A stretch of 64,000 bases of DNA from Ginglymostoma cirratum (lineage: Eukaryota), in NCBI GenBank assembly GCA_024137785.1, contig JAHRHZ010000047.1:2635336-2699335 (forward strand), in the 5' to 3' direction. The notes under the pieces were generated by a model. That model was not told the origin of the DNA. It saw nothing but the letters and a program-made list of their open reading frames with translations, and ran no database searches. Shown one piece after another: positions 8,790 to 63,170 of this stretch (position 1 is the first letter of the stretch; the number at the start of each line of letters is the position of its first letter). A program made the translations under genes and the position numbers.

Positions 8790-9290
8790 AGGAGGTGATG
8801 ATCGAGTGGTATTATCACCGGACTGTTAATGCAGGGACCTCTGTGTCCTAGAGATTCTGGGGACAGAGGTTCAAAATCTTCCATGGCAGATGGTGGAATT
8901 TGAACTCAATAATAAAAAAAATGTTAAAAGTCATTAGCAGTCTCTTTGCAAAAACAGCAAACTCACTGAACAAGGCCACCTTCAAATTCCCCTCCAAGTC
9001 ATTGACTGTGCTGACTTTGAACTATATTGCTATTCGTCTATTGTTGCTAAGTAAAAATCTGGACCTCCAAGCTACTCACCATCCTGACTTGGAAATATAT
9101 CACCATTCCTTCACTGTCGCTAGGTCAAAATCCTGGAATTCCCTCTCTAAGAGCATTGTCAGTCTACCTACAACACATAGATTCAAGAAGGCAGCTCAGC
9201 ACCACCTTCTCAAGGGAAACTAGGGATGAGCAATAAACGCTGGCTGGCCACCCAGTCGGTTGTCCCACAAGTGAATTAAAAAAATGAAAA
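8790..9290 (+). mobile_element. Internally deleted derivative of the tRNA-headed LINE (head plus 3' end)
   Basis: Head ggaggtgatgatcgagtggtattatc...ggttcaaaatc...ggcagatggtggaatttgaa, then LINE 3' region ctcaccatcctgacttggaaatat...gcaataaacgctggctggcc and an A tail. Confidence 0.7.
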
Positions 9291-14369: not shown

Positions 14370-15530
14370 GACATGGTTGTGGTTGCTGGAGATCAGTATC
14401 TTAGCTCCAAGATGTCAGTGTAGGAGTCAAAATGGATTGTATATTAGGCTCAAGCATCTTCAGTTGCTTTATCAGTGACCATTACGTTCCCTTCATTGTA
14501 TAGTCAGAAGCGGGGATGTTGATTGATGTTTCAGATACTGAAAAAACAAGGCTTGAACAATATCCAGGCTTTGGTTTACAAGTGGAAAGTAGCATTCAAA
14601 CCACACAAGTGCCAGGCAATGACTATCTCTATCAAGAGAAATTCTAACCATTGCTCTGAACATTCAATAAATCCATCATTGCTGAATTCCCAATCACCAA
14701 TAACCTGGCATTGATAACACTGACCATAAATCGAAGTGGACTATCCTTATAAGTACTGAAACTACAAGAGCAGGTCAGAGGCTAAGAATACTGCAGCGAA
14801 TAACTCATCTCCTCACTCGCCAAAGCCTGTCCATCATTTATAAGGCACAAGTTAAGAATGTGATGGACTAGAAAAAACAAAAAATTGTGGATGTTGGAAA
14901 TCTGAAACAAAAATAGAAATTGCTGGAGAACCTCAGCAGGTCTGGCAGCTTCAGTGGAAAGAAATCAGAGTCAGAGTCAATATTCTGGGTCCAGTGACCC
15001 TTCTTCTGAACTTATTGTAGCTAGGAAAGGTGTGATGGAATACTCTCTATTTGCCTGATGTGTTCAACTTCAATAACACTCAAGAAGTTTGACACTATCC
15101 AGGTCAAAGCAGTCTACTTAATTGACACTATATCCACAAATATTCACTCCCTCCACCACCATTGTATAGCAGCAACCGTGTGTTCCGTGTACAAGATACA
15201 CTATAGAAATTCATTAAGATTCCTTAGACATCACCTACCAAACCCATGACTATAACCATCCAGAAAGACAAAAACAGCAAATACATGGGAACACCATCAC
15301 CTGTAAGTTACTCCCAAACCACTCACCATCCTGGCTTAGAAATATATCACTGTTCTTTCCCTGTTGCTAGTCAAAATTCTGGAATTCCCTTCCTAACAGC
15401 ATTGAGAGCATATTTACACCAAATGAATGGCAGCAGGCCTCTAACCACCACCTTCTGAAGGGCAATTAGGAATGGGCAATTATTGCTGGACCAGCCAGTG
15501 ACCACCACATCCCTGAATGAATAAAAAGAA
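14370..15530 (+). mobile_element. Older 3' portion of the tRNA-headed LINE family
   Basis: Collinear with 28855-29860 (KCQAMTIS, HSLHHH, same 3' tail ending gaataaaaa). Confidence 0.85.
14868..15030 (-). mobile_element. Short Penelope-pLTR-like element inserted in a LINE copy, 9-bp TSD
   Basis: TGTGATGGA at 14859-14867 and 15031-15039; body gaaattgctggagaacctcagcaggtctggcagc is shared with similar short repeats near 280-400, 11160-11445, 12120-12230, 12735-12830, 30950-31000 and 57920-58030. Confidence 0.7.
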
Positions 15531-18185: not shown

Positions 18186-20214
18186 CTGTGAAAAAGAAAA
18201 CAATTTTAATAGTTGCATTTCCTTCAATGTTTTATATCTCATAATTTTCATTAATGCTCGAATTTAAAAAAAACTCCATGATAAATTCAACAAATGTAAA
18301 TCAAACTATATAGCTAAAATACTCTGGATCAATAATATGCTTAATTTAAGAAAAGGAGAAATCTCCACTTTCTTTGAGCTTTTTTCATCAATGAAATCAT
18401 GGAAGTGTGTGACAAACACAGAAAATACTGAAGAAACTCAGCAGGTCATTTATTAAATAAATATCACTGTCACTGAACAGCTTTGTGTACTAAGAAATAA
18501 AGCCTTGAAATACTCATTGTGTATACTTTAAATACATGTCTATCAAAGCATCAAATGACGAACATAAGATCATCGGAATCTGAAATGCCATGAAATACTT
18601 TCCATGGCTAATTAAAATGCGGCATCAATACGTAAATTAATTGATTTTGCTCCAAATAGTTGGTTAGTTAGTTTACTGCTACCAAACATTTCACATAAAT
18701 CTATGGAGCGATATAAACATTACTCCGAAGGAAGTCAAATGTTTGGATATCATATTTTTTTGTGATGTTAATTGGACAGTAATACCACTATCACCTAGAA
18801 TTTCCTCAGAGATTAATCTGCCTGGATGCTCTGGCTTTGGAGGATATATGGCAGAAACACTTTTTAATGCACAGTCAAGAGTTTCCACCTAAGTTTGAGT
18901 ATCTGACTGGAAAAGCCATGAGGGAATTCACTCAAACTCTCCAAATATCAGCCCTTAGCTTTTGTTCCTAAAGTTATATAATAATGTTAAATTTTACAGA
19001 TTTTACTAGCAAGTAATTTCACTACTGTTGCATAAAATGTCACTGGAACTGTTTTTACCTTTTGGCTGGGATGTGTTAGTAATGCATCAGAATCCTTAAT
19101 TTGTGTAAGAAAAGCTGGAACAGAAAAATGTGATTTTATGCTCAAATAAACAAACCTTCGTAAACTATAAAACATCTTGACAAGTTCTAGAAAGAGACAT
19201 CTTGCAATTATATGGTGCCTTATGATATTTACAGCACATTTCAGAGTGCTTCAAATACAATTATTTATTTTTTGAAATGCAGTGCCTCTTTTACGCAGGA
19301 AATGCAGCAGCTAATTTGGTCACAGGAATGTTCTATAAAGATTCTGTAGACATTCTATAAAGAATTCTACAAGACGACAAACAGACCTATTTACTTGAAT
19401 ACAGTGGTGCAGTTTGAAGGACAAATGTTGTCCAGGATATCAGATGACATTTCTGCACATTTTCTGAATATTTTTTTAAGCCAGAGGTGGATAGATTCTT
19501 GATAAGTAAGGGACATGTAAGGTCAGCAAAGGAAGGCAGGAATGTGAATTGGAAATTACAATCAAATCATGATCTAACAATATGGTAGTGCAGACAGTGG
19601 ATAAATGGCCTACTCCTGCTCCTCACACATATGAATTATGAAATAAACTGTATAATCGTTTATATTTATCCAAACAGGAAAAGTGGACATCAATATAATG
19701 CCCTAACTAATGACAGTTCATCTAATAAATTAGAACTTCTTCAGTATTATACTGAAGTTGTGGTCCAAATTGTGGGTCAAATTTCAGGATAGGGCTTGTA
19801 GCTACAAAAATGGAGGCAAGAATGCTAACAAAATCATTCAAACTGATATTTAAGGATAGTTTCATCAGTTACATTCTACTGGTACGGATTCATTTCCTTG
19901 GGATGAGCATGCGTCAAATGTGGATGCTGCAAAAATGTATTCTTGCTTTTTCAATCACTATTTCAACAAATCTACTTGTTGTGAGAAAACAGATATATTT
20001 CTATTGTCCACATGTTTTGCTGTTGAGAACATCTGTGTCTTTCATTTTCGATTGAAATGTTTTCCACTTTAAGTTTACTCTTCACAAAATATAACCATGG
20101 TCTACAACATGTTTCTTTAGAGCTCTGAACCTAACACACATTCACTAAACAATTCATTCCTATTGCACTCCACACTTATACTAAAAAATCATTCTGTAAA
20201 ATGTATTTATTTAA

Positions 20215-23187
20215 TTTTTTTATTCATTTGTGGGATATCGGCATCGCTGGCTGGCCAGCATTTACCGCCCATCCCTAGTTGCCCTTGACAAGGTGGTGGT
20301 GAGCTGCCTTCTTGAACCGCTGCAATCCTCCAGCTGTGGGTTGACCCATAATGCTATTAGGGAGGGAATTCCAGGATTTTGACCCAGCAATAGTGCAGGA
20401 GTGATGATACATTTTCAAGTCAGGATGGTAAGTGACTTGGAGGGGAACTTGACGGTGGTGGTGTTCCCATATATCTGCTGCCCTTGACCTTCTAGATGGA
20501 AGTGGTTGTGGGTTTGGAAGGTGCTGTCTGAGGATCTTTGGTGAATTTCAGCTGTGCATCTTGTAGACAGTACACATTGCTGCTACTGAGCGTTGGTGGT
20601 GGAGGGAGTGAATACTTGTGGATGTAGTGCCAATCAAGTGGGCCCCTTTGTCCTGGATGGTGTCTTGAGTGTTTTTGGGGCTGCACTCATCCAGGCAAGT
20701 GAAGGGTATTCCATCACACTCCAGACTTGTGCCTTGTAGATGGTGGACAGGCTTTGAGGAGTCAGGAGGTGAGTTATTTGCCACAGTATTCCCAGCTTCT
20801 GGCCTGCTCTTGTAGCTACTCTGTTAACGTGGTGAATCCAGTTGAGTTCCTGGTCAATGATAACCCCAGGACGTTGATAGTGGGAGGTTCAGTGATGATA
20901 ACACCATTGAATGTCAAGGGGCAGTGGTTAGATTGTCTCTTATTGGTGATGGTCATTGCCTGGCATTTGTGTGGCACAAATGTCAATTGCAACTTGTATG
21001 CCCAAGCCTGAATACTGTCCAGATCTTGTTGCATGTGAACATGGACTGCTTCAGTATCTGAGGAGTCACGAATGGTGCTGAATATTGCACAATTATCGGC
21101 GAACATCCCCACTTCTGACCTCATGATGGAGGGAAGGTCATTGATGAAGCAGCTGAAGATGGTGGGGCCTACGACACTACCCTGAGGAACTCCTGAAGGG
21201 ATGTCCTGGAGCTGAGATGATTGAACTCCCACAACCACGACCATCTTCCTACGTGTCAGGTACGACTCCAACCACCGGAGAGTTTGCCCCCGATACTCAT
21301 TGATTCCAGTTTTGCTAGAGCTCCGTGATGCCACACTCGGTCGAATACAGCCTTGATATCAAGGGCTGTCACTCTCACCTCACATCCGGAATTCAGCTCT
21401 TTTGTCCATGTTTGAACCAAGGCTGTAATGAGATCAGGAGCTGAGCGGCCCTGATGGAACCCAAACTGGGCGCCACTGAGCAGGTTATTTCTGAGCAGGT
21501 GTTGCTTGATTGCACTGTTTATGACACTTTCCATCACTTTACTGATGATCGAGAGTAGACCGATGGAGCGGTAATTGGCCGGGTTGGATTTGTCCTGCTT
21601 TTTGTGTACAGGACATATCTGAACAATATTCCACATTGTCGGGTAGATACCAGTGTTGTAACTATACTGGAACAGCTTAGCTAGGGGAGGGGCCAGTTCT
21701 GGAGCACAAGTCTTCAGTACTATTGCCAGGATGTTGTCAGAGCCCGTAGCCTTTGCAGGATCCAGTGTCTCCAACTGTTTCTTAATATCACGTGGAGTGA
21801 ATTGAATTGGCTGAAGACTGGTATCTGTAATGCTGGGGACCACTGGAGGAGGCAGAGATGGATCATCCACTCGGCACTTCTGGCTCAAGATTGCTGCGAA
21901 TGCTTCAGCCTTATCTTTTGTTCTGATGTGCTGAACTCTTCCATCATTGAGGTGGGGATATCTGTGGAGCCTCCTCGTCTAGTGAGTTGTTTAATTGTCC
22001 ACCACCATTCACAACCAGATGTGGCAGGACTGCTTAGATCTGGTCCGTTGGCTGTGGGGTCGCTTAGCTCTATCTATCACTTGCCGCTTTCGCTGTTTGG
22101 CATGCAAGTAGTCCTGTTTGGTGGCTTCATCGGGTTGATACCTCATCTTCAGGTATGACTGGTGCTGCTCCTGGCATGCCCTCCTGCACTTTTCATTCAA
22201 CCAGGGTTGATCCCCTGGCTAGACGGTAATGGTCGAGTGGGGGATATGCCAGGCCATGAGGTTACAGGTTGTGCTGGAGTACAGTTCTGCTGCTGTTGAT
22301 GGCCACAGTACCTCATGAATGCCCAATCTTGAGTTGCTAGATCTGTGCAGTCTTTCCCATTTAGCACGGTGATAGTGCCACACGATGGTGGTTGTTCACA
22401 ATGTGAAGGTGGGACTTCATCTCCACAAGGATTGTACAATGGTCACTCTTACTAATACCATCATGTACAGATACAACTGCAGCTGACAGATTAGCAAGGG
22501 TGAGGTCAAGTATGTTTTTCCCTCACCACCTGCCGGAGACCCAGTCTAGCAGCTATGTCCTTTAGGACCCGACCAACTCAATCAGTAGTACCGCTGCTTG
22601 GTGGGTCATTCTTGGTGGTGGACATTGAAATCCCTCACCCAGTGTACATTTTGTGCCCTTGCCATCCTCAATGCTTCCTCTAAGTGTTGTTCAACATTGA
22701 GGAGTACTGATTCATCAGCTGAGGGAAGACGGTATGTGGTAATCAGCACGTTTCCTTGCCCATGTTTAACCTGAAGCCATGAGACTTCACGGGGTCCAGA
22801 GTCAATGTTGAGGACCCCTAGAGCAACACCCTCCCGACTGTTTACCACTGTGCTGTCTTTGTAGTGATTGGTACATCTGGGTGGCTTGCTAGGCTTTTTC
22901 AGAGGGCAGTTGAGAGTCAACCACATTGCTGTGGGCCTGGAGTCACATGTAGGCCAGAGCAGGTGATGATGGCAGATTTCCACCCCTGAAGGGCATTAGT
23001 GAACCAGATGGGTTTTTCCAACAATCAGCACTGATTTCATGGTGATCAATAGATTCTTAATTCCAGTTTTTTTTTGAATTCCAATTCCAACATTTGCCCT
23101 GGTGGGATTTGAACCCAGGTCCCCAGAACATCAGCTGGGTTTCTGGATTAATAGTCTAGCAATAATACCACTAGGCTATTGCCTACT
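20215..23187 (-). mobile_element. Near-full-length degenerate APE-RT LINE (CR1 group, apparently no ORF1) with a tRNA-like 5' head
   Basis: ORFs 22606..22983 (APE, DFNVHH), 21256..21888 (PVHKKQDKSNPANYRSIGLLS, QFGF, LDIKAVFDRVWH), 20816..21334 (GVPQGSVVGP, MFADN); A box TAGCCTAGTGG 23178-23168, B box GGTTCAAATCC 23115-23105; A-rich tail near 20215; frameshifts and deletions. Confidence 0.9.
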
Positions 23188-24228
23188 CTTATGTTATATA
23201 ACCTACACTGAGTTCAGTGGCACAGTTGGTAACATCACTCCCCCTAAGCCAACATTCGGTTCACATTCCATTGTGTCTTAAGTACTCTTGCCACAGTTGT
23301 GGTAGGTCAAGCCCACCAGGATATGCAGAGTATTAAGCCAGAAACTCAGCTAATGTTCTAGGGACCCGGTTCAAATCCCACCATGGCAGATGGAAGAACT
23401 TGAATTCAAGTTTTAAAAAAATCTTGAATTATAAATCTACTGATCACCATAAAATCACCGTCCATTGTCGGAAAAACCCATCTCGTCCACTAATGTCCTA
23501 CAGGGGAGAAAATCTGCCATCCTCACCTGGTCTGGCCTACATGTGACTCCAGACCTGCAACATTGTGGTTGACTCTCAACTCCCTCTGAAATGGCCTGGC
23601 AAACAACTCAGTTGTACCAATCACTACACAGTCTCAAAAAAAAATGAAACTGGACAGATCACCTGGCATTGACTTAGGCACCAGAAAAGACGATGTCAGA
23701 AGCAACCCTGTTGACTCTGCAAACTCCTCCTCACTAACATCTGGGATTAGTGCCAAAATTGGGAGGGCTATCTCACAGTCTAGTCAAGCAACAGCCTGAC
23801 ATAGTCATACTCACAGAACACCTTACAGACACCACCCTCACTACTCCTGGATATGTCCTGTCTCACTGGCATGATAGACCCAGCAAAGGTGCTGGCACAA
23901 TGGTATACAGTCAGGAGGGAGTTGCTCTGGGAGTCTTCAACCTTGGCTCTGGATCCCAAGAAGTTTCATGGCTTCAGGAAACCCCCTGGCGATTACCACA
24001 TACCATCCTTCCTCAGCTAATGAATCAGTACTCCTCCATATTGAACAACACCTATAGGATGCACTGAGGATGGCAACGGCACAAAATATACGCTGGGTGG
24101 GGGATTTCAATGTCCACCACCACCAAGAGTGGCTCGGCAGCAGTACTACAGATCGAGCTGGTCGGGTCCTAAAGGATATAGCTCCTAGACTGGGTCTGCA
24201 GCAGATGGTGAGGGAGCCAACAAGAGGG

Positions 24229-24540
24229 CCGGTACAGTGGCTCAGAGTTTAGCGCTGCTGCCTCACAGCGCCAGGGACCCGGGTTCAATTCTACCCTCCA
24301 GCGACTGTCTATGCGGAGTTTGCACATTCCCCCCATGTCTGCATGGGTTTACTCTGGTTTCCTCCTAAGTCCAAAGATATGCAAGTTAGGTGGATTGCCC
24401 ATAGTTTTCAGGGAGGTGCAGGATAGGTGGATTAGCCATGGGGGATGGGTCTGGGTGGGGTGCTCTTCAGAGGCTTGGTCGGTGTGGACCTGCTGGGCTG
24501 AATGGACTGTTTCCACACTTTGGGGTTCTATGGTCCTATG
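24229..24540 (+). mobile_element. HE1-like V-SINE inserted in the LINE
   Basis: tRNA-like head (GGTTCAATTC), V-domain-like ggagtttgcacattcccccc...ccaaagatatgcaagttagg, CR1-type tail; GAGGG duplicated at 24224-24228 and 24541-24545. Confidence 0.85.
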
Positions 24541-24594
24541 GAGGGGAAAAAACATACTTGACCTCATCCTTACCAATCAGCCAGCTACAGATGC

Positions 24595-27500
24595 TGTTAT
24601 GAAGTTATGTAGAGTAATTATGAATCGGAAGACAGAAAACTAGAATTTGTTTGCAAAAAATGATAAAGGAGAACAATGCATGATTCCTGTAAGGGATAAA
24701 GTACTTTTCTGAGCTTAGGCATTTATACACAATTTTTTCTGTATGTATCTGAAGATATACAGCTAGTTCTAAAATGGAAACGTATCAATTGGCTGTGTGA
24801 TTGGAAACCCTTCAGCTTGTTTTGATATTTTGGCAACGGAACTGGAATCAGCCAATTAATTTAAACCAAGTACTTAGCAATTGAAAGCCAATTGAATTTA
24901 AATCCAAGATAATTGGAACTGCAGATGCTGGAGAATCCGAGATAACAAGGTGTGGAGCTGGATGAACACAGCAGGCCAAGCAGCATCATAGGAGCAGGAA
25001 AGCTTGACGTTTCAGGCCTAGACCCTTCATCAGAAATGGGGGAGGGGAAGGGGGTTCTGAAATAAATAGGGAGAGAGGGAGAGAGGGGGAGGCGGATAGG
25101 TGGAGACAACACAGACAAGTCAAAGGTGAGTGTAGGTGGGGAGGTAGGGAGGAGATAGGTCAGTCCAGGGAGGACGGACAGGTCAAGGGGGCGGGATAGG
25201 TTAGTAGGTAGGAGATGCGGGTGCAGCTTGAGGTGGGAGGAGGGGATAGGTGAGAGGAAGAACAGGTTAGGGAGGTGGGATGAGCTGGGCTGGTTTTGGG
25301 ATGCAGTTGGGGGAGGGGAGATTTTGAAGCTTGTGAAATCCACATTGATACCATTGGGCTGCAGGGTTCCCAGGCTGAATATGAGTTGCTGTTCCTGCAG
25401 CCTTCGGGTGGCATCGTTGTGGCACTGCAGGAGGCCCAGGATGGACATGTTGTCTGAGGAATGGGAGGGGGAGTTGAAATGGTTTGCAACTGGGAGGTGC
25501 AATTGTTTGTTGCGAACTGAGCGTAGGTGTTCTGCAAAGCGGTCCCCAAGCCTCCGCTTGGTTTCCCCGATGTAGAGGAAGCCACAACGGGTACAGCGGA
25601 TGCAGTATACCACACTGGCAGATGTGCAGGTGAACATCTGCTTGATGTGGAAAGTCTTCTTGGAGCCTGGGATGGGGGTGAGGTAGGTGGTGTGGGGGCA
25701 GGTGTAGCACTTCCTGCGGTTGCAGGGAAAAGTGTCGGGTGTGGTGGGGCTGGAGGGGAGTGTAGAGCGGACAAGGGAGTCACAGAGAGAGTGGTCCCTC
25801 CGGAAAGCAGACAAGTGTGGGGAGGGAAAAATGTCTTTGGTGGTGGGGTCTGATTGCAGATGGCGGAAGTGTCGGAGGATGATGCGTTGGATCCGGAGGT
25901 TGGTGGGGTGGTACGTGAGGATGAGAGGGATTCTGTTTTGGTTGTTATTGCGGGGACGGGGTGTGAGGGATGAGTTGCGGAAAATGCGGGATACATGGTC
26001 GAGGGCGTTCTCGACCACTGTTGGGGTGGGGGGGGGGGGGGGGTGCAGTCCTTGAAAAACGAGGACATCTGAGATGTACGGGAGTGGAATGCCTCATCCT
26101 GGGAGCAGATGCGGCGGAGACGAAGGAATTGGGAATAGGGGATGGCATTTTTGCAGGAAGGTGGGTGGGAGGAGGTGTATTCTAGGTAGCTGTGGGAGTC
26201 GGTGGGCTTGAAATGGATATCGGTTTCTAGATGGTTACCAGAGATTGAGACAGAGAGGTCCAGGAAGGTGAGAGAGGTGTTAGAGATGGTCCAGGTGAAC
26301 TTAAGGTTGGGGTGGAAGGTGTTGGTGAAGTGGATGAACTGTTCGAGCTCCTCATGGGAGCACGAGGCAGCGCCAATACAGTCATGAATGTAACAGAGGA
26401 AGAGGTGGGGTTTACGGCGAGTGTAGGTGCGGAAGAGGGATTGTTCCCTACAAAGAGGCAGGCATAGCTTGGGCCCATGCGGGTACCCATGGCCACCCCC
26501 TTTGTCTGTAGGAAGTGGGAGGAATTGAAAGAGAAGTTGTTGAGGGTGAGGACGAGTTCGGCTAAGTGGATGAGGGAGGGTTAGGTTCACGGTTGAAGAA
26601 GTAAGCATGGAGGCGGAGGCAGCGGAAAAACTGCTCAATGTCCAAGCGTGAGCGGTATTCGTTGACATGTGGGTGGAGGACGACAAAGGTGAGCCCTTTA
26701 CTGAGGACTGACCGTTCGTCCTCAGTAAGGGGGAGGTCTGGGGGGATGGTGAAGACTCGGCAGGGCTCAGTGTTGCTGTATCCTCTGGAGCTGCTGGCTG
26801 TGGAGGCAGTGGGCAGAGTGATGTCGGCGTCGGCTGTGGGTGAAGTTGCGTCGGTGGTGGTGGGTGGGGTTGTGTTGGTGTCGGCAGTGGGTGGAGTTGC
26901 AATGGAGTCAGCGGTGGGCGGAGTTGCGTCGGAGTGGTTTTGACTACCTTGGACCAATGCTATTGTAAGAAAATGGATATGTCATCCAAAGTATATAAGG
27001 AGAGCGTTTTCGAAAATCGGTGCGAGAGCCAACTGCCATCTAAGAAACAAGCACCTAACTTGCACAAGAAATTGCTAGGCTCTCTAAGAAAGCACCATCT
27101 TATCCATAAAAGGTACCACGGCACTCCTGGCTAAGAGTTTCCACAGAGAAAACATCTCTTACAGCAGGATCAGCAGAAGCAAAGTGTTTATGACTTTAGA
27201 ACAGCAGAAGAAAGGTGTTTATGACTACAGAGACAGTGGAGAAAGCAGAGCATTCCAGAAGACACATTCTGTGTGGACTTGCAGAGACTATCATGGCACT
27301 TCTAGCCAAAAGTCCTCACAGAAGAATTCACAGAGAAAACATTCATGACAGAAGGATCAGCAGAGAAGGTAAAGAACATTCCGGAAGACTTAATTTGGCT
27401 GCACTTTTGAGAATCTAAGTTCTAATTAATTTTTATTATTACTTGGGTTATATAAGTGGGGTTTGTATTTATTGGACTCGCATACCAGAAGAATTTTGTT

Positions 27501-27659
27501 CAATTAGGGAATAGCTAGCAGTTAAGGGGGAATTGTTCAATTTGTTAGTAGTTCTGTTAATTTGTTCAGTGTTAGGGCTAAATAAATAAATTGTTACTTG
27601 TTACTTATAAAGTGAATATCAGGGATTTTCTTTCATTTAACTTCTCCTCTTCTGTAACA
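24595..27659 (+). mobile_element. Probable solo LTR (about 1.0 kb: 24595-24905 plus 26945-27659), interrupted by a Penelope-like element
   Basis: Begins TGTTA and ends TAACA; the LINE resumes in register on both sides; TATA-like gtatataag near 26991, internal direct repeats 27140-27370, AATAAA near 27581. Confidence 0.7.
24906..26944 (-). mobile_element. Penelope-like element (RT plus GIY-YIG endonuclease), 5'-truncated and internally deleted
   Basis: ORF 24861..26018 has VVYCIRCTRCGFLYIGETKRRLGDRFAEH (GIY-YIG); AMGTRMGPSYACLFVG, FLDL and YLEYTSSHP are PLE RT motifs; pseudo-LTR end near 24906-25060. Confidence 0.92.
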
Positions 27660-30600
27660 ACACATCTGTCCATGACAGTATCGGTAAGACTGACCAACGT
27701 ACAGTCCTTGTGGAGACAAAGTCCCACCTTCACATTGAAAATATCCTCCATCGTGTTGTGTGGTACTATAACAATGCTAAATGGGACAGACTTTGAACAG
27801 ATCTAACACCCAAGACTGGGCATCAGTGAAGCACTGGGGGCCATCAACAGCAGCAGAATTGTACTCCAGCATAATCTGTACCCTCATGGCCCAGCATTTG
27901 CCCCACTCAACCACTACCTTCAAGCCAGGTTCAATGGAGAGTGCAGGAGGGCATGCCAGGAGCAGTACCTGGTAAACTTGAAAATGAGGCGTCAACCTGA
28001 TGAAGCTGCCAAACAAGACTACTTGCATGCCAAACAGCATAGACAGCAAGTGATAGAGCTGAGCAATCCCACAACCAACAGATCAGATTTAACCTCTGTA
28101 GTCCTGCCACATCCACTCATGAATGGTGGAGAAAAATTAAACCACTCACTGGAGGAGGAGGCTCGACAAATATCCCCATCCTCAATGATGGAAAAGCCCA
28201 GCACATCAGTGCAAAAAATAAGGCTGCTGCGAAAGCTTCAATCTCCAGCCAAAAGTGCCGAGTGGATGATCCATCTTGGCCTCCCTCAGTGTTCCCCAGC
28301 ATTACAGATGCCAGTCTTCAGCAAGTTTGATTCACTCCAAATGATATCAAGAAATTGTTGGAGAAAATGGATATTGCAAAGGCTATGGGCCCTGACAACA
28401 TTCCGGCAATAGTACTGAAGGCGTGTGCTCCAGAACTTGCCGCTCTCCTAGCCAAGCTGTTCCAGTACAGTTACAACACAGTTACCCAACAATGTGGAAA
28501 ATTGTCCCAAGTTGTCCTGTACACAAAAAGCAGGACAAATCCAACCTGGCCAATTACCGCTCCATCGGTCTACTCTCGATCATCAATAAAGTGATGGAAG
28601 GTTATCAACAGTCCTAGAAAGCAGTACCTGCTCAGCGATACCCACTTTGAGATCCAAAACAGCCACTCAGCTCCAGACCTCACTACAGCCTTGGTCCAAA
28701 TATCAACAAAAGAGCTGAATTCCAGAGGTGAGGTGAGAGTGACAGCCCTTGATATCAAGGCTGCATTTGACCAAATGTGGTATCAAGGAGCCGTAGCAAA
28801 AATTGAATCAGGGAAAAGTCTCCAGTGGTTGGAGTCAGACTTGACACATTGGCAGATGGTCGTGGTTGTTGGAGGTCAGTCATCTTAGCTCTAGGACATC
28901 TCTGCAGGAGTTCCTAGGCATAGTGTCCTCGTTCCAACCATCTTCAGCTGCTTCATCAATGACCTACCCTCCATCATAAGGTCAGAAGTGGGGATGTTCA
29001 CCAATGACTGCACAATGTTCAGCACCATTCGTGACTCCTCAGATACTGAAGCAGTCCATGTTCACATGCAACAAGATCTGGACAATATTCAGGCTTAGGC
29101 ATACAAATGGCAAGTAACATTCGCACCACACAAATGCCAGGCTATAACTATCACCAATAACAGGCAATCTAACCACTGCCCTTGCCATTCAACGGTGTTA
29201 CGATCACTGAATCCCCCACTATCAACATCTTAGGGGGTTATCATCAACCAGAAACTCAACAGACTTGCCACATAAACACCGTGGCTAGAAGTGTCGATCA
29301 GAAGCTAGGAATACTGCGGTGAGTAATTCACCTCCTGATTCCTCAAAGCCTGTCCACCACCTACAAGGCACAAGTCAGGAGTGTGACAGAATACTCCCCA
29401 CTTGCCTGGATGAGTGACACCATCCAGGATGAAGCAGCTGTCTTGAATGGCACTACATCTACAAGCATCCACTCCCTCCACCACCAATGCTCAGTAGCAG
29501 CAGTGTGTACTATCTACAAGATACACTGCAGAAATTCACCAAAGATCCTCAGACAGCACCTTCTAAAGCCAGGACCACTTCCATCTAGAAGGACAAGGGT
29601 AGTTGATACACGGGAACACCACCACCTTCAAGTTCCCCTCCAAGACACTCACCATCCTGACTTGGAAATATATTGCCGTTCCTTCACTGTTGCTGGGTCA
29701 AAATCCTGGAATTCCCTCCCTAATGGCATTGTGGGTCAACCCACAGCAGGTGGACTGCAGCAGTTCAAGAAGGCTGCTCACCACCATCTTCTCAAGGGTA
29801 ACTGGGAACAGCAATAAATGCTGGCCAGCCAGTGATGCCCACATCCCACAGTTGAATTTTTTAAAAATCTGAAAATTTGACACCTCATTTGGACCAACGC
29901 TTCAGTGCAACGCTGAACAACCCCTGCCTCATTAAATTAGCCTTCTTCAGTAAAAATGTTAAACTGATATCCCAGGTTGTATTTTATCAAAGATCAGTTC
30001 AGTGTCAAGACTTGAAGACTCAGGAAGGTGCATTCGTCACATACCCATACAAGTTAAGCATCAACTTGTAAATCATTCCACCCTGTGCCAATGGCAGGAG
30101 TTAAGAACAGGAAAGATATCTGGTCACCAATATGATGGAAATTGGAGACTGTATCCCCACTAACCATAGCTCCAGGCAACAACATGCATCTGGAAGCATA
30201 TGTTGCCACAGAAACTTGGACTCTTTGAAAGACCAACTGGCTCATATGGCTGGACAGCCAGTGAGGAATTGCTTGATGCCAATAGCATGAGGCTCAATCT
30301 TCAAGCCAGCTGGAGTGGATTTGTGGCCTGCCTCCTCACCCTTCCCATGCTAAAGATCCTAGTGCTATAGACTGGACTTGTTTTTATTCAGAGAAGTGGA
30401 GAAGATGACCCAAAGTGGCAGAAAGTCTTCCTTCATCTCTTCCATCCTAGAAATAGCCATGCCGAATACAAAGTTTCGTGTAGACAATTCCTAGCATGAC
30501 CATGTCATTTGTATATACAGAGAATCAACTGATTCTGCAGAAACTTCTCCTCCACTGTACGGCCAGTGGCTGCAGCTACAGCCCAATGGCATGATAGGTG

Positions 30601-37532: not shown

Positions 37533-38217
37533 TTTTTTAAAAATTCATTCACAGGATGTGGCTTCCCTGGCTGGACCAACATTTATTGCCCATCCCTAAT
37601 CTGCTTAGAGGGCAGTTAAGAATCAATTACAATGCTGTAGGTCTAGAGTCACATATAAACCAGACCAGGGAAGGACAGCAGTGTTCCTTCTCTAAAGGAC
37701 ATTAGTGAACCAGAACATTTTTCCTGATAATGGGCAACAGTTTCATGGTCATCATTAATAACAAGGGTCTTTCCCTAGGATGGGGGAGTTCAAAACTAGA
37801 AGGCGTAATTTTAAGGAGAGAGCAGAAAGATTTAAAAGGAACCTGCGGGGCAACTTTTTCACACAGAGAGTGGTTTGTATGTGGAATGAACTGCCAGAGG
37901 AAGTGGTAGATGCAGGTACAATTACAACATTTAAAAGATATTTGGACAAGTACACGAATGGGAAAGGTGTAAAGGGATATGGGCTAAACGCAGGAAAATG
38001 GGGCTAGATAAGTTTGAGAAACTTGGTCAGCATGGCCGAAATAGACCGAAGGGTCTGTTTCCATGCTGTATGATTCTATGACTCTTAATTCCAGATTATT
38101 ATTGAATTCAAACTCCAATCATTTATCATGGCAGTATTCAAATGCGGGTCCCCACAAGAAAACCTTGGTCTCTGAATTGATAGGTTAATGATAAAACCAC
38201 TAGTCCAACACCACCCC
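37533..38217 (-). mobile_element. SINE-sized derivative of the tRNA-headed LINE (head, 5' body, 3' tail), interrupted by a CR1 fragment
   Basis: 38083-38217 matches head 23055-23187; 37605-37757 matches 22900-23050; 37533-37600 matches the LINE tail 20215-20280; no ORF sequence between. Confidence 0.8.
37761..38082 (+). mobile_element. CR1 (HER1-like) LINE 3' end
   Basis: ORF 37780..38007 RGNFFTQRVVCMWNELPEEVVDAGTITTFKRYLD; tail gggtctgtttccatgctgtatgattctatga. Confidence 0.88.
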
Positions 38218-38755
38218 TTTGGTGAATATCTTTGTCATGAATGCGGTTCAGCAAAGATAAATGTGAAGTGGTACTTCTAAAAGAAAACAATGAATAGAAA
38301 AATATACTAAACAGCTCAGCGCAGTGGAAGAGGTCTATGGCAGAAAATCACTGTGGTTTTGAAGGAACGAATGATGCCTTTCCAAAGAGACATACTTATA
38401 ATTTTCTTGGGCATTGGGGCAAGATGGTAGGGAGAGTAGCTCAACAGTCAGAATTTAAATGGGAAGGACATCAAGGGGCACACACTGGAAATTAAATCTG
38501 GTGAGGGCCAAGTGGGGTGAAAATAAAGAGTAAAGCAGAAAGCTTGGCTATTGAAGTCTATTCAATCAACTCTTGAATATGAAAAACATTAGAGTGTATT
38601 GGTAAATATGGGTCTGGAATTGAAAGCTAGAATTTGCAGCTTACAGTGAAACTGATATAATAGGCTAAACTGGACCTTTTCTGGGCTTAAACTCCTCACA
38701 TTCCATGGTATAACTGAAATAGGATGTAGAGTGAGTAAGCAACTGAGTCACTTAC

Positions 38756-47276: not shown

Positions 47277-47585
47277 TCATAATCATAGAATCCCTACAGT
47301 GTGGAAACAGGCCCGTTGGCTCAACAAGTCCACGATGACCCACAGAACATCCCATCCAGACCCATCCCCCTATAACCCATCTAATCTACACATCCCTGAA
47401 CACTATGGGCAACTTAGCATGGCCAATCCACCTAACCTGCACATCTTTGGACTGTGGGAGGAAACCCACTCAGATACGGAGAGAACGTGCAAACTCCACA
47501 CAGACGGTTGCCCGAGGATGGAATCGAACCCGGGTCCTTGGCGCTGTGAGGCAGCAGTGCTAACCACTGGGCCACTGTGCTGCCC
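47277..47585 (-). mobile_element. HE1-like V-SINE in the last DTWD1 intron
   Basis: Minus strand gggcagcacagtggcccagtggttagcactgctgcctcacagcgccaaggacccgggttcgattcc, V-domain, tail ccacactgtagggattctatga. Confidence 0.9.
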
Positions 47586-48215
47586 TTTTAAAGGCAATAT
47601 ATAGTGTTCGGCTCAAGTACTCCCTCTGCCAGCAAAGTTCAATTCTCGCTATTCCAGGCATTTTATTGTTGATGGCCTACTTAATTTTTATTTTGGTGTC
47701 ATCTTACATTGTGGCCAGTAGATTTGCTTTTCCCCACTTTTAGAAATATTCTACTCAATCAAAACTGTTCATAGTTTTAAAGGTCTCTTTTAGGTTACCT
47801 CTCAAGAAAAGTGGCCCAGCTATAACATTAAACAAAATGAAAATTAATCCAAAGTCAAGCAAAATTGACTAAAGTTTTCTCGCTATTGATCTTTATTCAG
47901 CAATCACAGTTAAAAGCGAGTGTTACTTCTGAGTGAGGATATAAAGAGTTTCAACTTCTATGTCTGATACCAAACTAATTTTTCCTGCTCTAGTTCAAAA
48001 TAGCAAATCCTGGTAATAGAGCTGGCATCTTCAGAACATGAAGGAAAGAGGAATATTTTATGACGTTAACTTAATTGGAAACATGTTTCCATGTAATGAA
48101 CAATTACATTAGAAGGATATGATTTAAATTGTAATGTATTGTTAGTTAAAAATACATATTTGTATTGACTGTTCTCAAAAAGCTTAAATTTTTCCCTGCA
48201 CCCTTCTCTTTGTAG

Positions 48216-49830: not shown

Positions 49831-52800
49831 GGTTAGCTGTTAGTAACTTTGTCAGAATGCACAAAAAGACATGGGAGTAGCCAGCACGTTTCTTGGAGAC
49901 ATTTGGCAATCTGAATTGAAGATTGGAAGAGTACACCGATGCTGGCTCTGGCTGCCTACATGTCCAGGTTGGTGGCTGCTATGGAGAGCCAGGTCCAGCT
50001 CTCTCGGTGGCTGCTTGTTATTCATACAACCCTGCATTCTGCGAATGGCAAGATGAGAGGAGAATTGAGGGACCTTGATTTACCTCAAGATGTCACTTTC
50101 TCACAATGGCTGTAGCCCATGCCTCTACCTGTAATGATGCAGAACGCCTGACCCTGAATGCTTCAATTGACCATGTCCAAGGCCCTGGTCATAAGTCAGA
50201 CAATGCCCTTCACTGACTGTGGCTGGACCCCCTGACTGATTGATTGGATTTGAGTAAAGACAACTTTCCTTAGACTTGAGGCCTGGCTATTTAGTTGCAG
50301 TACAGTCATCACGTTTGCATTGTAAGCTGCTGGCGTGTCATACTGATGAAGGAAGGGGCCATACCCAGACGTGTCCATCCCCTTGACTGATCATTGCTGG
50401 AAATATGACTGGCTACCTTGCTTTGTGTCTACACTAAAAGACAAGATAGTAGTAGTGGGAGCCTGTAAGCTCTGAATGAGGCAGAAATGCGCAAAAGAAG
50501 AGACAGATGCTGTGAGCATCCAAGTAGCTGTATTGATTCTGTGCTAAGAAAGCAAGTGAAGAGCCCAGAGATGTATCCTGTCCTGATGCATGCCTGTCCC
50601 TGCCTGGCAGCAGCATTGCAATGAAAGGTGTCAGCAACATCCAAAGTGCAGTACTGATGTGTTGAACTATATTCTAAGTGAGTCGGAGATGCAGGTGGTT
50701 GCTTGTCTGATGCCAACCTCCAAATACAAGGTATGCAGTCAGTGTTTGCCCATGGACCATGCCCAAAATGTTGGGGACTGCAGGCTAAGACAAAGCCTGG
50801 TGGAGTAAAGAGAGAGCTGGAGCCACTGGGCACCTGCTCTGACTTTCATGTTGGGAATTGGTAACACCGCAACTTCCGTATAAATAAGGTGAGAATAGGT
50901 AATATGAGACGTTAATCACTCAAACGGGCCCTTTGCTACCCACTAGCAAGATTCTCATCTAGCTATTAAATCCTTAAGAGAAAAAGTAGCTGATTTTCCA
51001 CCTGAGTCGAGAATTTCATTTTTGTGATCTCATCAAATTTTCCCAACTGATTGCCCACGTTGATCGGTGGCTGGGAATATTGTGGCTTTATTTTCCCATT
51101 AATCTGACACACAGTTGTGTCAGTGCAAACTGGTTTCCTAAGATTTGCATGGTTCTGTCGGTAAAGTTAGGGCAGACAAGCAGAAGGACCCCTGTGGAAA
51201 CTCACTTCTAGGTATTTTATTGATGCTGATCAACAGGCATGATGTTGCTTTGGCAAGAGACATGGCTGCAATAGGCTCACATACATGTATCATAAAGTTC
51301 AGTTGGTATTGAGGTGGGGGGTAGCGGGTATTAATCTATAGGAGTCGGTTACTTCTGCTCCAAGGCCATTCTAGATTCTTGACATTTGTACATTGGTAAC
51401 TGACACTCCATATCACCTAATGTTGGATTGAAGGAGGCTAGTGAGAAGTTAACACTTTCTGTAGTTGCAGTTTTAGCTGACAGGCCAGATAGGGTTGTCA
51501 GTCCACTGTAATTATTTGGTACTGCGGAAACAGCTCAGTAGCTAAAGGCATTCTTGAATCTTCTTCCATTCCTAAAATCTAAGCAACCTGATTTAGGATA
51601 GTATGATAGAGTAGGCTGTCAACAATTCTGCAAAAATTAATGCAAAGGCTATTATTATTCTGTTAAGTCAATGTTACTGAAGCAGCACACCCATATAAAG
51701 TACCATTCCTCACTGACCTGCTGTCTGTTAAGACCACCCACATTCACTTTGCATAACTTAAGAGTTAGTTGTATATTACAATTTATGGCTTTCATTTTTC
51801 TCTTTATGGAATACTTATTAATTACAAGTGCTTTGTGAATTCAATATGAGCCAAAGCCAAAAAGCAACATGTTTTGCTAGGGTGTCTTGTAAGGCTCTAT
51901 ACAAGTTGTTTATTTGAATTTCCAGAATGACACTGTTTTCTGGCAGAATGGCTAGAGAAGAAGCCAAGAAAAGAACTAATTGCCCACAGAGCTGTGCCCC
52001 CTGCCAAGATCTGTTTACAGGCTTCATGCATACTGCAACACTTTCATCTGGACATCTGAAATTTATCTTGACTATGTTATTTCTATCAAAGACCTATTCT
52101 ACCCTTCAATCATATAATGATAGATGGTCGCAATTTTTCAGTATTCAACTACCTTTGAAATTTCTTAAAAGTGTGATGTGGGGTGCAAGGCATCAAAACA
52201 ATAAATCTGTAGGCCAGGAAGAAGGGGGTCAGAAGGGATACAAAAACACTAATTTCAAAGCTCAAAAGCTGAAGAATCATTGAGTGAAGAACAACTATCC
52301 TGTAAGTGAAAGAAAACTTCAACGAAATAATCTCCTCTCAAACACAGTTAGACATTTTCTAGTGGCTGACTTAAGCACTGTGCCAACATCCACTTGACTG
52401 ATGGCCCTCATTCCTGTGATCATTCTCATAGGCATTTTCTGCACCATACCTTAAGGCTTTAGAGCCTTCCTGAAAAGTGGTTCCCAGAATTTGACACAAT
52501 ACTATCATTGAGGCAGAAATAGTGTTTTAAGTGGTTCACTATCACCTACTTGCTTTTGTACTCTTGTCAAGTCCAGGATCCTATTTGCATTATTAACCAT
52601 GTTTCCTCAATCTGTGTTGTCTCCTCTAGATGTGTGCATAAGTATAGCACCTTTCATGACCACAAAGTACCTTAGCATCAATTAAATACTTTGCAGGGTT
52701 AGGCCAATGCTCCAGTGTAGGAAACATTACTGTATGCATGTTGCTATGTCCTAAAGCAGCACTAAAATAAATTAATAATCCTAGTGATATTGCTTACGTG

Positions 52801-52872
52801 ATAAATATGGAAGAACTTCTCTGATGTTTGCATTGTGTTTTGGGCCATCTTAGAAGGCAGCTGGAAACTTGG

Positions 52873-56730: not shown

Positions 56731-59659
56731 AACCCGGAGCCCCTAAAGCAGCTTCAGCCTCTGTATACATTATTAGCAAATCTTGTCTAATATTTGAATA
56801 TGACACGCCATTATTCTAAATGCATAAACAGAAAAACATTGTGGGAAATTCTTAGATACAGAAGATTTATATGGGATATCCTCAAATTACATAACAGGCA
56901 GTCCAGGTTGTGAATGGGTTCTGTTCTCAAGTCTGTTGATTTGTACACCATGCAGAACAATATAAAGAAGCTGGTCAAAAGTACAGGAAACGATTGTATG
57001 TCAGATCTTTAAAATTACACCCACTATATGGGATCACGTTCATAAGTACAAACATTCATAAGTTGGAGGTTCATCGATCAGGACCCCCAGTATTGCAATG
57101 TCACTTTCCCAGGGTGAGGGTAGGGGGGAATGAAGAAACAAACTGTGGTTTTAGATAGGAGTTTCAAATATTATAAGAACAACACTAGCAATAGAGTTGA
57201 AGAAAGAGGCACTCCTCTAAGCAAACATGCTAGGAATGCTTCTCACTTCCAGTTGGGATCTTGTAGGATTGTGGCAACCAGAGAGCCTGCACATACCCCT
57301 CATCAAATCTGGAACTGTGTTGTCCATGATATGCAGATTGGATTAGAGCCACAAGTCTGACGGTACTTCAGTTTGTGGGTTTGGAGCTGTAATGACTCAG
57401 GATTGCCAACTTGGATTACAGCCACTAGAGTTTGAATAATTTTTTTTCCCTGCAGCTTTGAAAAGCTACGCAAGTGGTAATGATTAAAAACCCAACAGCA
57501 GTTTTTCAGCTGGGTTCAGTGTGAAGACTTCTTCTAGTCAAAGGCAATAGAATTAGACATGAATAAAAAGACAATTTTCATTTACTGGATACAAGTACCA
57601 GTGCATACCAGTTTGCTTAGTTGACACTAATAATTAAAGCTCTTCCATTGTAAGAATACTACATTGTTGGTTAGGATGGACAGGTTTCTTTGGCCTGGCA
57701 TAGCACCATGATTCTTAAATTGACTTGTTAAAGTTTTTAATTAGTATTTGTACCAGATTAGAATGCCAGATAATAATATACACTTAGCTGATTACTTAAT
57801 CCTCAATGCTTTGTAGTTTTGTATTATACTAATTACTTGATTAAGTGACTTGCTGCTAAAATGCTTTACATGAAAATTGATTCTGTTTTGTTCTTCAACA
57901 TATCAGATACTGAAGTACCACTACAAACATACAGCATCCTGGAGAAGCTCAATAGATCTGGCAGCATCCATGAAAAGAGATACAGTATTAATATTTGACT
58001 CTGTTGTGACTTCTTCAGCACTGAAAAGTGATGGAAATTTTTTAAAAAATGATATGGATCAGTATACAATGGTACCATGTTTGTTTTAGATATTTGGCAT
58101 GCACAATATTTTGCTTTTGAGTAGCACTGTTAAATCTGATTTTGAACTTTATTACCCAAATTTATTGGTTGTACACCAAGCTCAACATCATAGATTGATT
58201 TGGATGTGAAATCTTCTGGGCTCAACATAGTTAGCAGATGTGCATAATGCTAGAGTTTATTTTTTAAAAAATCTTGTCTTTTTAGTTATTTTCTTCCATT
58301 TGTACTAGCCTTTGCTAGTTTGCATATCTACTTTTCACTGAGTAATTTCTACTACTCTTGAATGTGGGAGGTTAGGGGTGGATATGTCTAAACATGAATA
58401 GGTAATACCTGTCATACATCTGAAAGATTTCAAGTCATTATCTAAGCATTAATTTCTAACTGTTGACAGATTCAGGAAATGTTAAAATAGTTAATTCATT
58501 GTGAAATCGTGTATACAAAGCAAAATCTAAATGCTGGGAAAGGTATTTTTAAAATCTCCCAAGGAAATGTTAGTCCACATATGTAAAAGTTAATTTTCTG
58601 TGCCAGACATTGTTTGGCTTTATTAAAAATTACATTTTTAAAAGAAAACCCTGACACGATGGTAATAGATAAAATCCAACATTTTCTGGCGTATCTACTA
58701 GCTATCTAATGGTAAGTACAGCAAATTCACACTGTTTCCTATGTTCAATGCTGATTCTCTTTACAAGATACTAATAAAGCTAAGTCTCTGGGACTTCATC
58801 ACCAGAATTTGCTATATCAATTTATTATTTAATAATGTTGAGTACTTGTTGTTTGTACTGCAAAACCTGGACTGTTATCATCTTCAACAGTGTCCCATGT
58901 AAAACAAATGCACTGGTGAGTCATAGAGGGAAGAAGCAATTATGTACAATGTACAACATCTGCTTGGCTTGGTATGATTTTGTGGATTATGTTGTTAATT
59001 ATGTGTTTTGGTCTTTCTATTTAACCTTTAATAAAACAAAGCTGAGCTTAAATATTATTTATCAATGATATCTGTAGTTAACAAATTCATTTTGGTTTAC
59101 ATCAATGCTAGTGACAAGACAAAAAGGTTTCTATAGAATTTTCAGTAATGAGCAATTGTTCATTTACACTGAAAAGACACGATGGAAGCACATTTTCAAA
59201 CACATCTACTTATAATTTTAAAAAATGCTGCAATGATTGTACTGTATTGCTGATTCCATAAAACTACTTTAACGTACTACCCTCTTCATGATAACTTTTC
59301 CAGTTTATAATTATGTTCACATTGTTCTAACCTGATTTGGCACAATATATTGTTCCCCCAAGTATCTGGTCACTTAATCTAATTCTGCAAAAATATGGAA
59401 GATTAATCTTGACCAACGAGCTGTTGCAAAGTGGTAACTAGTTTTCCCTGGCTCTACACTGAATAAACTCGTATATTTCATATATTTTCCACAACTAAAT
59501 TAATTTCCAGCATTTGTTTCTTTCATCAGTTTGTCTTCTAGCATGAAACTACCATCGGTCATGGTCACATGTAGTTGCCAATACAAGCCCTGCAGGAAGT
59601 TTTAAAAGGAATTGTGATCATCTGCTTTTGTACTCCCCCCTCCCCCCCCCACAACCCTT

Positions 59660-60046
59660 TATTTTTTTTAAATGGGATGTAGGCCAGCATTTTTTTACCC
59701 ATCCAGAAATTCCCTTGAACTGAACGTCTTGCTAGGCTATTTCAGAGGGCAGTCAATTCTCAACCACATTACTGTGGGTGTGGAGTCACATTTAGGTAGA
59801 CCAGAAAAGAATGGCAGATTTCCTTCCGTAAAGGGTATTTAGTGAGCCAGACAGATTTTTCACAATTCACAATTGATGACAGCTATCATGGCCTTTATAA
59901 TGAAGACCTGTTTTACACTCCAGATTCTTCAATTGAATGCAGTTTCCACTGTCTACTTTCCTGGGATTTGAATGCGTAGCCCCAGACCATTAGACGATTA
60001 ATCCGGAGACCTAGGCTAATACCATTACCACTAAACTATCACTCCT
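59660..60046 (-). mobile_element. Older SINE-sized derivative of the tRNA-headed LINE
   Basis: Same order of blocks: tail (gggatgtaggccagcattt), ttcagagggcagt...caaccacatt...ggagtcacat...ggcagatttcc, gggatttgaa (B box), accactaaactatc (A box). Confidence 0.75.
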
Positions 60047-60171: not shown

Positions 60172-60488
60172 TATAGAATCCCTACAGTGTGGAAGCAGGC
60201 CACTCAGCCCATCGAGCCTACCCAGACCCACCCCTTCCTACCCTAACCCCATAACCGTGCATTTCCCATGGCTAATCCACCTAGCTTGCAGATCCTAGAC
60301 ACTGTGGACAATTTAGCATGGCCAATCCACCCAACCGGCACATCTTTGGACTATGGGAGGAAACTGGAGACCCGGGGAAACCCACACAGACACAGGGGAC
60401 AATGTACAAACTCCACACAGGCACCTGAGGCTGGAATCAAACCTGGGTTCTTGAGGCAGCAGTGCTAACCACCGCCATGGTGCTGCCC
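60172..60488 (-). mobile_element. HE1-like V-SINE
   Basis: Same head, V-domain and tail as 47277-47585, with an internal duplication of the gccaatccacc segment. Confidence 0.85.
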
Positions 60489-61268
60489 TTAGAGATGCAA
60501 CTTTCTTCCAGCACCCACCAAAAAGACTTGTCACTTAAGTGACAATTGCATTATTTTAAAATAATTAATTTGTTATCCATTTCGGTTTTTCTATTTGAAT
60601 TCCTGTTATCTCATCCCTTTTACTGTTGCCTTCAATCCTTTGTTTCCCCACAGTAGTTGCTGCTTCTATTCAAAAAAGCTAACGCTTGTACTGCTACATG
60701 GGTTTCAGTTCCTTCCTTGTTTTTCAGGGAATTAAAAAACGTCAAATAAAATATTTAAAAATCAATCATCCACCTGAAATAAAATAATCAGGAGATATTT
60801 TTAAAAAAAGGTAATGAAAAAGAATTGAAAATCTTTCTGCACAGCTTTTTGAGAAACTAAATTACTTTTTCATCCAGAATTATCCCAAATTTTTAATTAA
60901 TTCGGTTCCCTAATTTTCAGTTGCATTAGTTCTTTAAAAATATTTTGACAGTTTTTGGTTTTTAAGATGTGAAAAAATGAAATGTGAAAACGTTATGAAT
61001 AATAAACAGTAGTTTCTCATTTGTGAAGCTAGCATTCCTGATGTAACCTGGAATTAATTTATTGTAATTTGACGCAAGTAGTATGACTGGAACTTTCATG
61101 AAAACAATACTGGTAATAAAAGAAATCATGAATACAAATAATATAGGAAAATATTTATTTTCAAATTTCCCCTGGATTATGTGTTCTGTTAGTTTCTGTA
61201 ATCTTCAAAGCACGAAGTTCTGGAACAGAATTGCGGGTTTATTCAGTATAACATTTCTGTATCAATGT

Positions 61269-62855: not shown

Positions 62856-63170
62856 GGTGACACGCTGGCTCAGTGGTTAGCACTGCTGCCTCAGTGCCAA
62901 GGACCCGGGTTCGGTTCCAGCCTCAGGAGACTGTCTGTGTTGAGTTTGCACAATTCTCCCAGTGTCTGTGTGGGTTTTCTCCGGTTTCCTCCCACAGTCC
63001 AAAGATGTGCAGGTTAGGTGGATTGGCCTTGCTAAATTGCCCGCACTGTCTAGGGTGAGAAATACAGGGATGGTGTAGGGAGCGGGTCTGGGAGGGATGC
63101 TCCTCAGAGGGTTTGTGTAGACTCTATGGGCCGAATGGCTTGCTTCCGCACTGTAGGGATTCTATTCTAA
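62856..63170 (+). mobile_element. HE1-like V-SINE in the last NNT intron
   Basis: tggctcagtggttagcactgctgcctc...ggttcggttcc; ccggtttcctcccacagtccaaagatgtgcaggttagg; tail cactgtagggattcta. Confidence 0.9.

Follow-up and report, generated by a model that had tools for sequence, protein, structure and literature searches.

LINEs are taken to be RNA polymerase II (Pol II) units and SINEs RNA polymerase III (Pol III) units, and Pol III is not known to serve autonomous retrotransposons; a LINE headed by a Pol III promoter would break that division. A 64,000-nt stretch of the Ginglymostoma cirratum genome (the window; contig JAHRHZ010000047.1, positions 2,635,336 to 2,699,335) contains a decayed element of this appearance, and raises the question of whether its tRNA-type head belongs to the LINE and whether its coding strand has been shaped by Pol III. 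The first-pass annotation of the locus had placed an A box and a B box 52 nt apart at the 5' end of the element, and both boxes were found at that spacing (Table 1). The flagged copy has suffered a deletion of ~275 nt near 22856, i.e. after family nt 334, which removed the counterpart of ATG 23644 and of the endonuclease start. Two insertions, one at about 24229-24540 and the other at about 24595-27660, interrupt copy 2.

Table 1. Features of the headed LINE family and its twin SINE in the window (positions on the forward strand; family nt are counted along the LINE)
Feature	Position	Strand	Remarks
Flagged LINE copy	20215..23188	-	5'-complete, decayed; 85-92% identity end to end with long genome copies
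A box, type-2 (tRNA-type) Pol III promoter	23168..23178	-	10 nt inside the 5' edge of the element
B box	23105..23115	-	52 nt past the A box; from family alignment
5' block of ~315 nt with promoter head, A-rich linker and an unnamed body	22875..23188	-	Common to the twin SINE; based on SINE junction at family nt 316 and negative Deu tests
Remains of single APE-RT ORF	20275..22856	-	Sister copies match PF14529 and PF00078; reading frame taken from the commonest letter in each column
3' block with final codons, short 3' UTR and A-rich end	20215..20287	-	Common to the twin SINE; junction at family nt 3195
Copy 2 of the LINE, more diverged	23290..29860	+	B box 23368-23378; out-of-frame ATG 23644
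Old 5'-truncated LINE copy	14370..15530	+	69-74% identity to a long copy
Twin SINE, long form	59655..60046	-	LINE nt 1-316 joined to nt 3195-end
Twin SINE, short form	37560..38219	-	Junction near nt 291; ~320-nt repeat inserted at 37761-38082

The family to which these copies belong has a full length of ~3.27 kb and one APE-RT ORF, and its copies are dispersed, some of them 5'-truncated, with an A-rich 3' end and no LTRs. Searching the 4.36-Gb genome with the head and ORF start as query gave 14,071 first-look candidates, of which 40 were scored, and part or all of the head stood directly before the ORF in 31 of 39 fetched loci, a set biased by the query. When the head alone was used, 27 of the best 30 matches (which include the query itself and the flagged copy) ran deep into the ORF and none showed the SINE junction; two of the other three passed the SINE junction point and then jumped to the 3' end, and the third ended at nt 331. 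The head-ORF junction is fixed at one point in dozens of copies. Conservation sets in abruptly 10 nt before the A box (30 copies) and sequence abutting the head upstream was common to only 1 of 435 pairs of flanks, so neither an ORF1 nor a promoter further upstream has been missed; the ~435-nt leader also contains no long ORF, in agreement with the earlier claim that ORF1 is absent. It had further been expected that head and ORF would be contiguous in many copies flanked by target-site duplications (TSDs), and here the contiguity was found in dozens of copies and the TSDs were not, since in no case among 23 long copies did one adjoin both ends. In LINEs of the CR1/L2 group, TSDs are frequently short or absent. 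ARAGORN recognised no tRNA gene in the head, and the only Rfam match there was T-loop-like (E 0.81).

Shared non-CpG variants divide 44 long copies into young, middle and old subfamilies, which diverge from their own commonest letters by 6.2, 7.5 and 9.7%, respectively. The main axis of variation in the head follows that of the body (Spearman rho 0.81, 44 copies), and the young version of the head was found on LINEs only. Both boxes persist through the subfamilies, the strict pattern retaining the two together in only 11 of 41 decayed copies, and among copies the box columns are no better conserved than the rest of the element. Between the young and old subfamilies the ORF accumulated 20 synonymous and 11 non-synonymous non-CpG differences (pN/pS 0.17, p 1e-6; singleton mutations, as a control, 0.81), and was under purifying selection while the family was active. 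Because head and body were inherited together and pN/pS is this low, the headed LINE is regarded as autonomous and as selected for its protein over successive bursts. The family is now dead, and none of 114 scored matches has an intact ORF. The proposal that the tRNA-type head belongs to an autonomous LINE is thus borne out by the fixed junction, the head-only matches and the correlated variants, and the co-inherited head is a real, well-supported and unusual architecture.

Natural ORF fragments of sister copies match PF14529 and PF00078, and taking the commonest letter of each column yields a single open frame, 977 codons from stop to stop, which opens at a stop inside the block shared with the SINE. 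The first endonuclease motif lies at codon 48, ahead of any in-frame ATG, the earliest of which is codon 171, and several upstream AUGs precede the APE-RT frame, none of them in frame ahead of the endonuclease. The ATG at 23644, from which the APE frame had been said to start, is present in 13 of 16 copies; it is in the wrong frame and begins a 35-codon upstream ORF that overlaps the endonuclease start, the long ORF lying in the -1 frame relative to it. A slippery heptamer was not obvious by eye. An IRES-like leader structure was also set aside, because the leader gave no sign of folding (mean z -0.6 to +0.9) either in 12 decayed copies or in alignment folds, although the decay of the copies may hide one. 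Relatives of the headed LINE differ in having an in-frame Met before the endonuclease, in 3 of 3 loci where the motif was correctly located, and no purge of TTT. The single ORF adds nothing new, being the usual design in the nearest relatives; what is unusual in the family is the head and the missing AUG.

Recounting upheld the purge of T-runs from the sense strand of the flagged copy, where 20215-23187 has no T4+ and three T3 (22630, 21465 and 20980), along with 48 A3+ and 14 A4+. It likewise upheld the counts for copy 2 (no T4 in 27660-29856, one at 23411) and for the old copy, in which T4 is absent from 14370-15530, and the repeat at 37761-38082, offered as an internal control, does have four sense T4+. 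The other proposed control, a 'Penelope' ORF, carries five T4+ in 24860-26960, though its label could not be confirmed, 25160-26959 having no Pfam match. This minus-strand sequence within copy 2 belongs to a 2.7-kb repeat family with open frames of up to 731 codons and copies ~92% alike, and has no similarity to APE-type RT.

The three T3 of the flagged copy compare with 24.7 expected from mononucleotide and 15.1 from dinucleotide shuffles, none of 500 of which reach 3, and its lack of T4 has p 0.056 against dinucleotide shuffles. Over 3292 columns of the family's commonest letters there are two T3+, both isolated, and no T4+, with 51 A3+, 45 C3+ and 40 G3+. Against synonymous shuffles of the family ORF, two T3+ were observed where 11.5±2.7 were expected and no window with four T in 5 nt where 9.8±3.6 were expected, whereas the absence of T4 (1.4-1.6 expected) gave p 0.17-0.20. 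The predicted depletion relative to codon-shuffled sequence therefore holds for TTT and for T-dense windows and fails for TTTT, whose absence is not significant under codon-aware nulls and was rejected as a test statistic. In the whole element, such four-in-five windows number 0 for T, 85 for A, 83 for C and 55 for G.

The avoidance of T clusters is strand-specific and is achieved via synonymous choice. Phenylalanine is written TTT in 1 of 17 codons while other two-fold codons end in T in 75 of 192 (p 0.007), and a synonymous T is used at 1 of 22 places where it would form TTT, compared with 208 of 477 elsewhere (p 1e-4). The corresponding figures for 19 natural copies read in place, which are not independent of one another, are 61 of 392 for Phe TTT, and 80 of 489 for T at such junctions versus 3997 of 8727. 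Phenylalanine itself accounts for 1.7% of residues; in 61 metagenome relatives it never falls below 3.0%. The old subfamily has four T3 and one four-in-five T window and the young subfamily two T3 and no such window, a small trend in the expected direction.

The control LINEs show no such purge of TTT. Three families of the same genome, two of which we take to be CR1-type and one Tx1-type, were treated identically, with 28 of 30 RT loci usable, and gave observed over expected T3+ of 43/43.1 and 38/38.0 (CR1-type) and 27/24.3 (Tx1-type), the last family having the same T content as the headed LINE. T4 was mildly low in all three (9/14.4, 8/11.5 and 2/6.3); sense T4 in these LINEs thus lies ~30-70% below synonymous shuffles without depletion of TTT. 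A second set of controls came from 80 metagenome loci with a related RT, distant from the headed family at 31-46% protein identity, of which 61 have an ORF of at least 450 aa; their T3+ ratio is at least 0.79 with a median of 1.02. None of these relatives had a B box upstream (by pattern) or a true match to the head, some contigs including little upstream DNA. The claim that T-runs are more depleted than in LINEs lacking the head accordingly stands for TTT, which is purged neither in the three genome families nor in the 61 relatives.

Other causes of the purge were considered. Avoidance of polyadenylation or splice signals was rejected, as AATAAA, donor-like and acceptor-like motifs are not depleted in the ORF, nor are A, C and G triplets; avoidance of the endonuclease's own target does not fit the abundance of T-runs on the opposite strand and was rejected as well. 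In the portion of Orioli et al. drawn on here, T3VT, TVT3 and T2VT2, which belong with the four-in-five T windows counted above, are weak human Pol III terminators, and isolated T3 is almost inactive and served as the negative control for termination (PMC3141230). Since isolated T3 was a negative control in that work, the avoidance of TTT is only an indirect signal of terminator avoidance.

Judged from its sequence, the element is an autonomous single-ORF LINE with a tRNA-type A/B-box head that was probably transcribed by Pol III over its whole 3.3 kb, and full-length transcription of this kind would explain why the sense strand is purged of T-rich terminators. TFIIIC would bind the internal A and B boxes, and Pol III would start ~10 nt before the A box, read through the ORF and stop at a T-run in flanking DNA. 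SINE transcripts made by Pol III also stop in flanking DNA. The APE-RT protein would then recognise the 3' tail and insert the RNA by target-primed reverse transcription, which, when it copied the full RNA, would restore the internal promoter in full-length copies. Translation is the weakest step of the proposal: such an RNA would carry no cap and its ORF lacks an in-frame AUG, so that ribosomes would have to enter the frame either by shifting -1 out of the 35-codon upstream ORF that overlaps it or at a non-AUG start. That the whole life cycle ran on Pol III, with a 3.3-kb uncapped RNA kept free of terminators by codon choice and phenylalanine content, translation without AUG and a SINE arising by deletion of the ORF, is put forward more tentatively, and falls somewhat short of an even chance.

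The simplest objection, that an ordinary SINE lies beside an ordinary 5'-truncated LINE or was fused with one once or a few times, might draw on contig depth, in which SINE-type heads far outnumber ORF starts, and on the lack of TSDs bracketing head and tail. It conflicts with a head-ORF junction fixed in dozens of copies, with the common inheritance of head and body variants and with the confinement of the young head version to LINEs; the head-only matches and the variant co-inheritance refute it, and it deserves next to no weight. A different history for the purge would follow if the head were the captured 5' end of a SINE that served as a Pol II promoter or was crossed by read-through from host promoters, U-rich sequence being avoided on other grounds such as RNA stability, export or an RNA-binding restriction factor. 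Depletion that is strongest for TTT and T-dense windows, and not for T4, fits such a history, as does the normal status of LINEs as Pol II units in the sections cited from PMC5786205. However, other LINEs of this genome are exposed to identical host factors and have not purged TTT, the 5' edge sits at the expected start of a type-2 Pol III transcript, and both boxes persist through the subfamilies; we consider this history fairly unlikely.

Pol III might also have made only an uncapped template, the protein coming from another RNA such as capped Pol II transcripts that start in or upstream of the head. This arrangement would account for both the T purge and the difficulty of translating an uncapped RNA, and the protein acts in trans on the twin SINE via the common tail, but a capped RNA would still meet several upstream AUGs and no in-frame AUG. 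Moreover, the ORF of the master lineage was under purifying selection, which links the template and its protein to one and the same set of copies; this arrangement is unlikely. Transcription of the entire headed LINE by Pol III is the reading preferred here. If true, it would show that a long protein-coding RNA can come from Pol III and still be translated, and the family would allow translation independent of cap and AUG, and coding sequence designed without terminators, to be put to the test. The bolder reading, in which the whole life cycle ran on Pol III, would add a natural Pol III messenger RNA and a way of making SINEs whose head is supplied by the LINE itself.

The twin SINE exists in two forms. 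The long form, in which LINE nt 1-316 are joined to nt 3195-end, accounts for 18 of 30 matches to the SINE at 59655-60046, and the short form, in which nt 1-291 are joined to nt 3199-end, for 2 of those matches and for 11 of 13 further loci. The heads of the twin SINE carry the variants of the old LINE subfamily. Contigs of two other organisms show the short junction as a loose end, and in one contig of another organism the SINE-shared block runs into the ORF. Most simply, the twin SINE is the headed LINE minus its ORF, produced by internal deletion, and this origin is the simpler one because the LINE head ends exactly where the long SINE tail begins; the less simple reading is that a truncated LINE captured the front end of a SINE. 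A SINE whose head, body and tail all derive from one LINE is relevant to the unsettled origin of SINE bodies. LINE copies deleted internally at other breakpoints (nt 354/3121 and 456/3113; loci L222 and L224 and window positions 8793-9290) are further bipartite derivatives beside the two twin-SINE forms. In 11 of 19 young LINE copies, AAGAAA stands in place of the AATAAA seen in the SINEs ~45 nt before their end, a possible loss of a polyadenylation signal.

Among named proteins, the closest to that of the headed LINE come from Mobula (76% identity across one third of the query) and Heptranchias (56%). Its nearest relatives in the databases are proteins of 930-990 aa on contigs of 3.2-3.8 kb; no relative was found on viral contigs. 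Identity to the RT of the genome's CR1 family is 31-37%, and the headed LINE falls outside its clade in a quick RT tree that included no named Zenon or L2 reference and has an open backbone. Neither the upstream ORF1 nor the RT grouping of the two-ORF CR1 clade, the HER1-type, is present in the headed LINE, which has the single APE-RT ORF of about 3 kb seen in the CR1-Zenon group, and lepidopteran and beetle proteins at 40-44% identity, presumably Zenon proteins, are among its best named matches. Zenon-type CR1-group LINEs of Lepidoptera likewise have a single ORF with endonuclease and RT, and, as far as the cited parts of the source go, the Zenon 5' end carried by Persaeus is, unlike that of the headed LINE, without tRNA homology or a Pol III promoter (PMC6740152). 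A 'CR1-Zenon like LINE' is a repeat class in the whale shark genome, whose 5' end is not described in the section of the preprint that covers it (bioRxiv 10.1101/443036).

In build, the twin SINE resembles tRNA-derived SINEs (SINE2) with a LINE-derived tail, having an A/B-box head, a non-coding body, a tail shared with a LINE and an A-rich end. The headed LINE differs from SINE2 elements in being neither short nor non-coding, at 3.27 kb with a selected 977-codon APE-RT ORF, and here SINE and LINE have the head as well as the tail in common. A non-autonomous partner made of LINE 5' and 3' ends is also seen in Persaeus from Zenon and in the RTE- and Vingi-derived SINE bodies treated in PMC5786205. 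In the relevant sections of that paper (Kojima 2018), LINEs count as Pol II units and heads as having been acquired afterwards, the LINE 5' end being a presumed Pol II UTR to which a small-RNA head was added later by template switching, and SINE bodies are traceable only to RTE and Vingi 5' ends; the headed LINE is unlike those cases in that the Pol III head is already on the autonomous LINE. Among the passages covered of the open full-text literature, none describes a LINE headed by a Pol III promoter, and the family may be deposited in Repbase or Dfam.

Among SINEs of cartilaginous fish, SacSINE1 and LmeSINE1, Deu-SINEs whose partner in the part of the source cited is L2-2_CM (PMC5499810), also combine a tRNA head with a LINE-shared tail. 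The headed LINE has no Deu domain, and identification of its head body as a Deu domain, or of the twin SINE as SacSINE1, was rejected by published alignment, motif search and Deu profile. The Deu alignment (PMC7245038 supplement) shows no resemblance to the head body, and the Deu core motif from the same source does not occur in the element even when 3 mismatches are allowed, whereas it occurs 89 times elsewhere in the genome (2 for the control). A profile of 20 Deu-motif loci found no match at E 10 in 65 LINE and SINE sequences of the family. The Deu-motif SINEs of this genome are a separate, older family with a different tail, a separate tail fragment of the headed family lying near 1 of the 20 loci. 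UCON3 and Meta domains were also sought in the head body, by eye only, and gave no match. Within the window, an old, interrupted Deu-motif SINE (SacSINE1-like, E 3e-15) lies at 19170-19855 on the minus strand and is unrelated to the flagged LINE, and 52614-52828 gives a weaker match to the Deu-motif SINE profile. A second tRNA-headed SINE family of ~300 nt, which we take to be V-SINE/HE1-like, is present at 24229-24540 (plus strand), where it is inserted into LINE copy 2, and at 47284-47587, 60173-60490 and 62866-63165.
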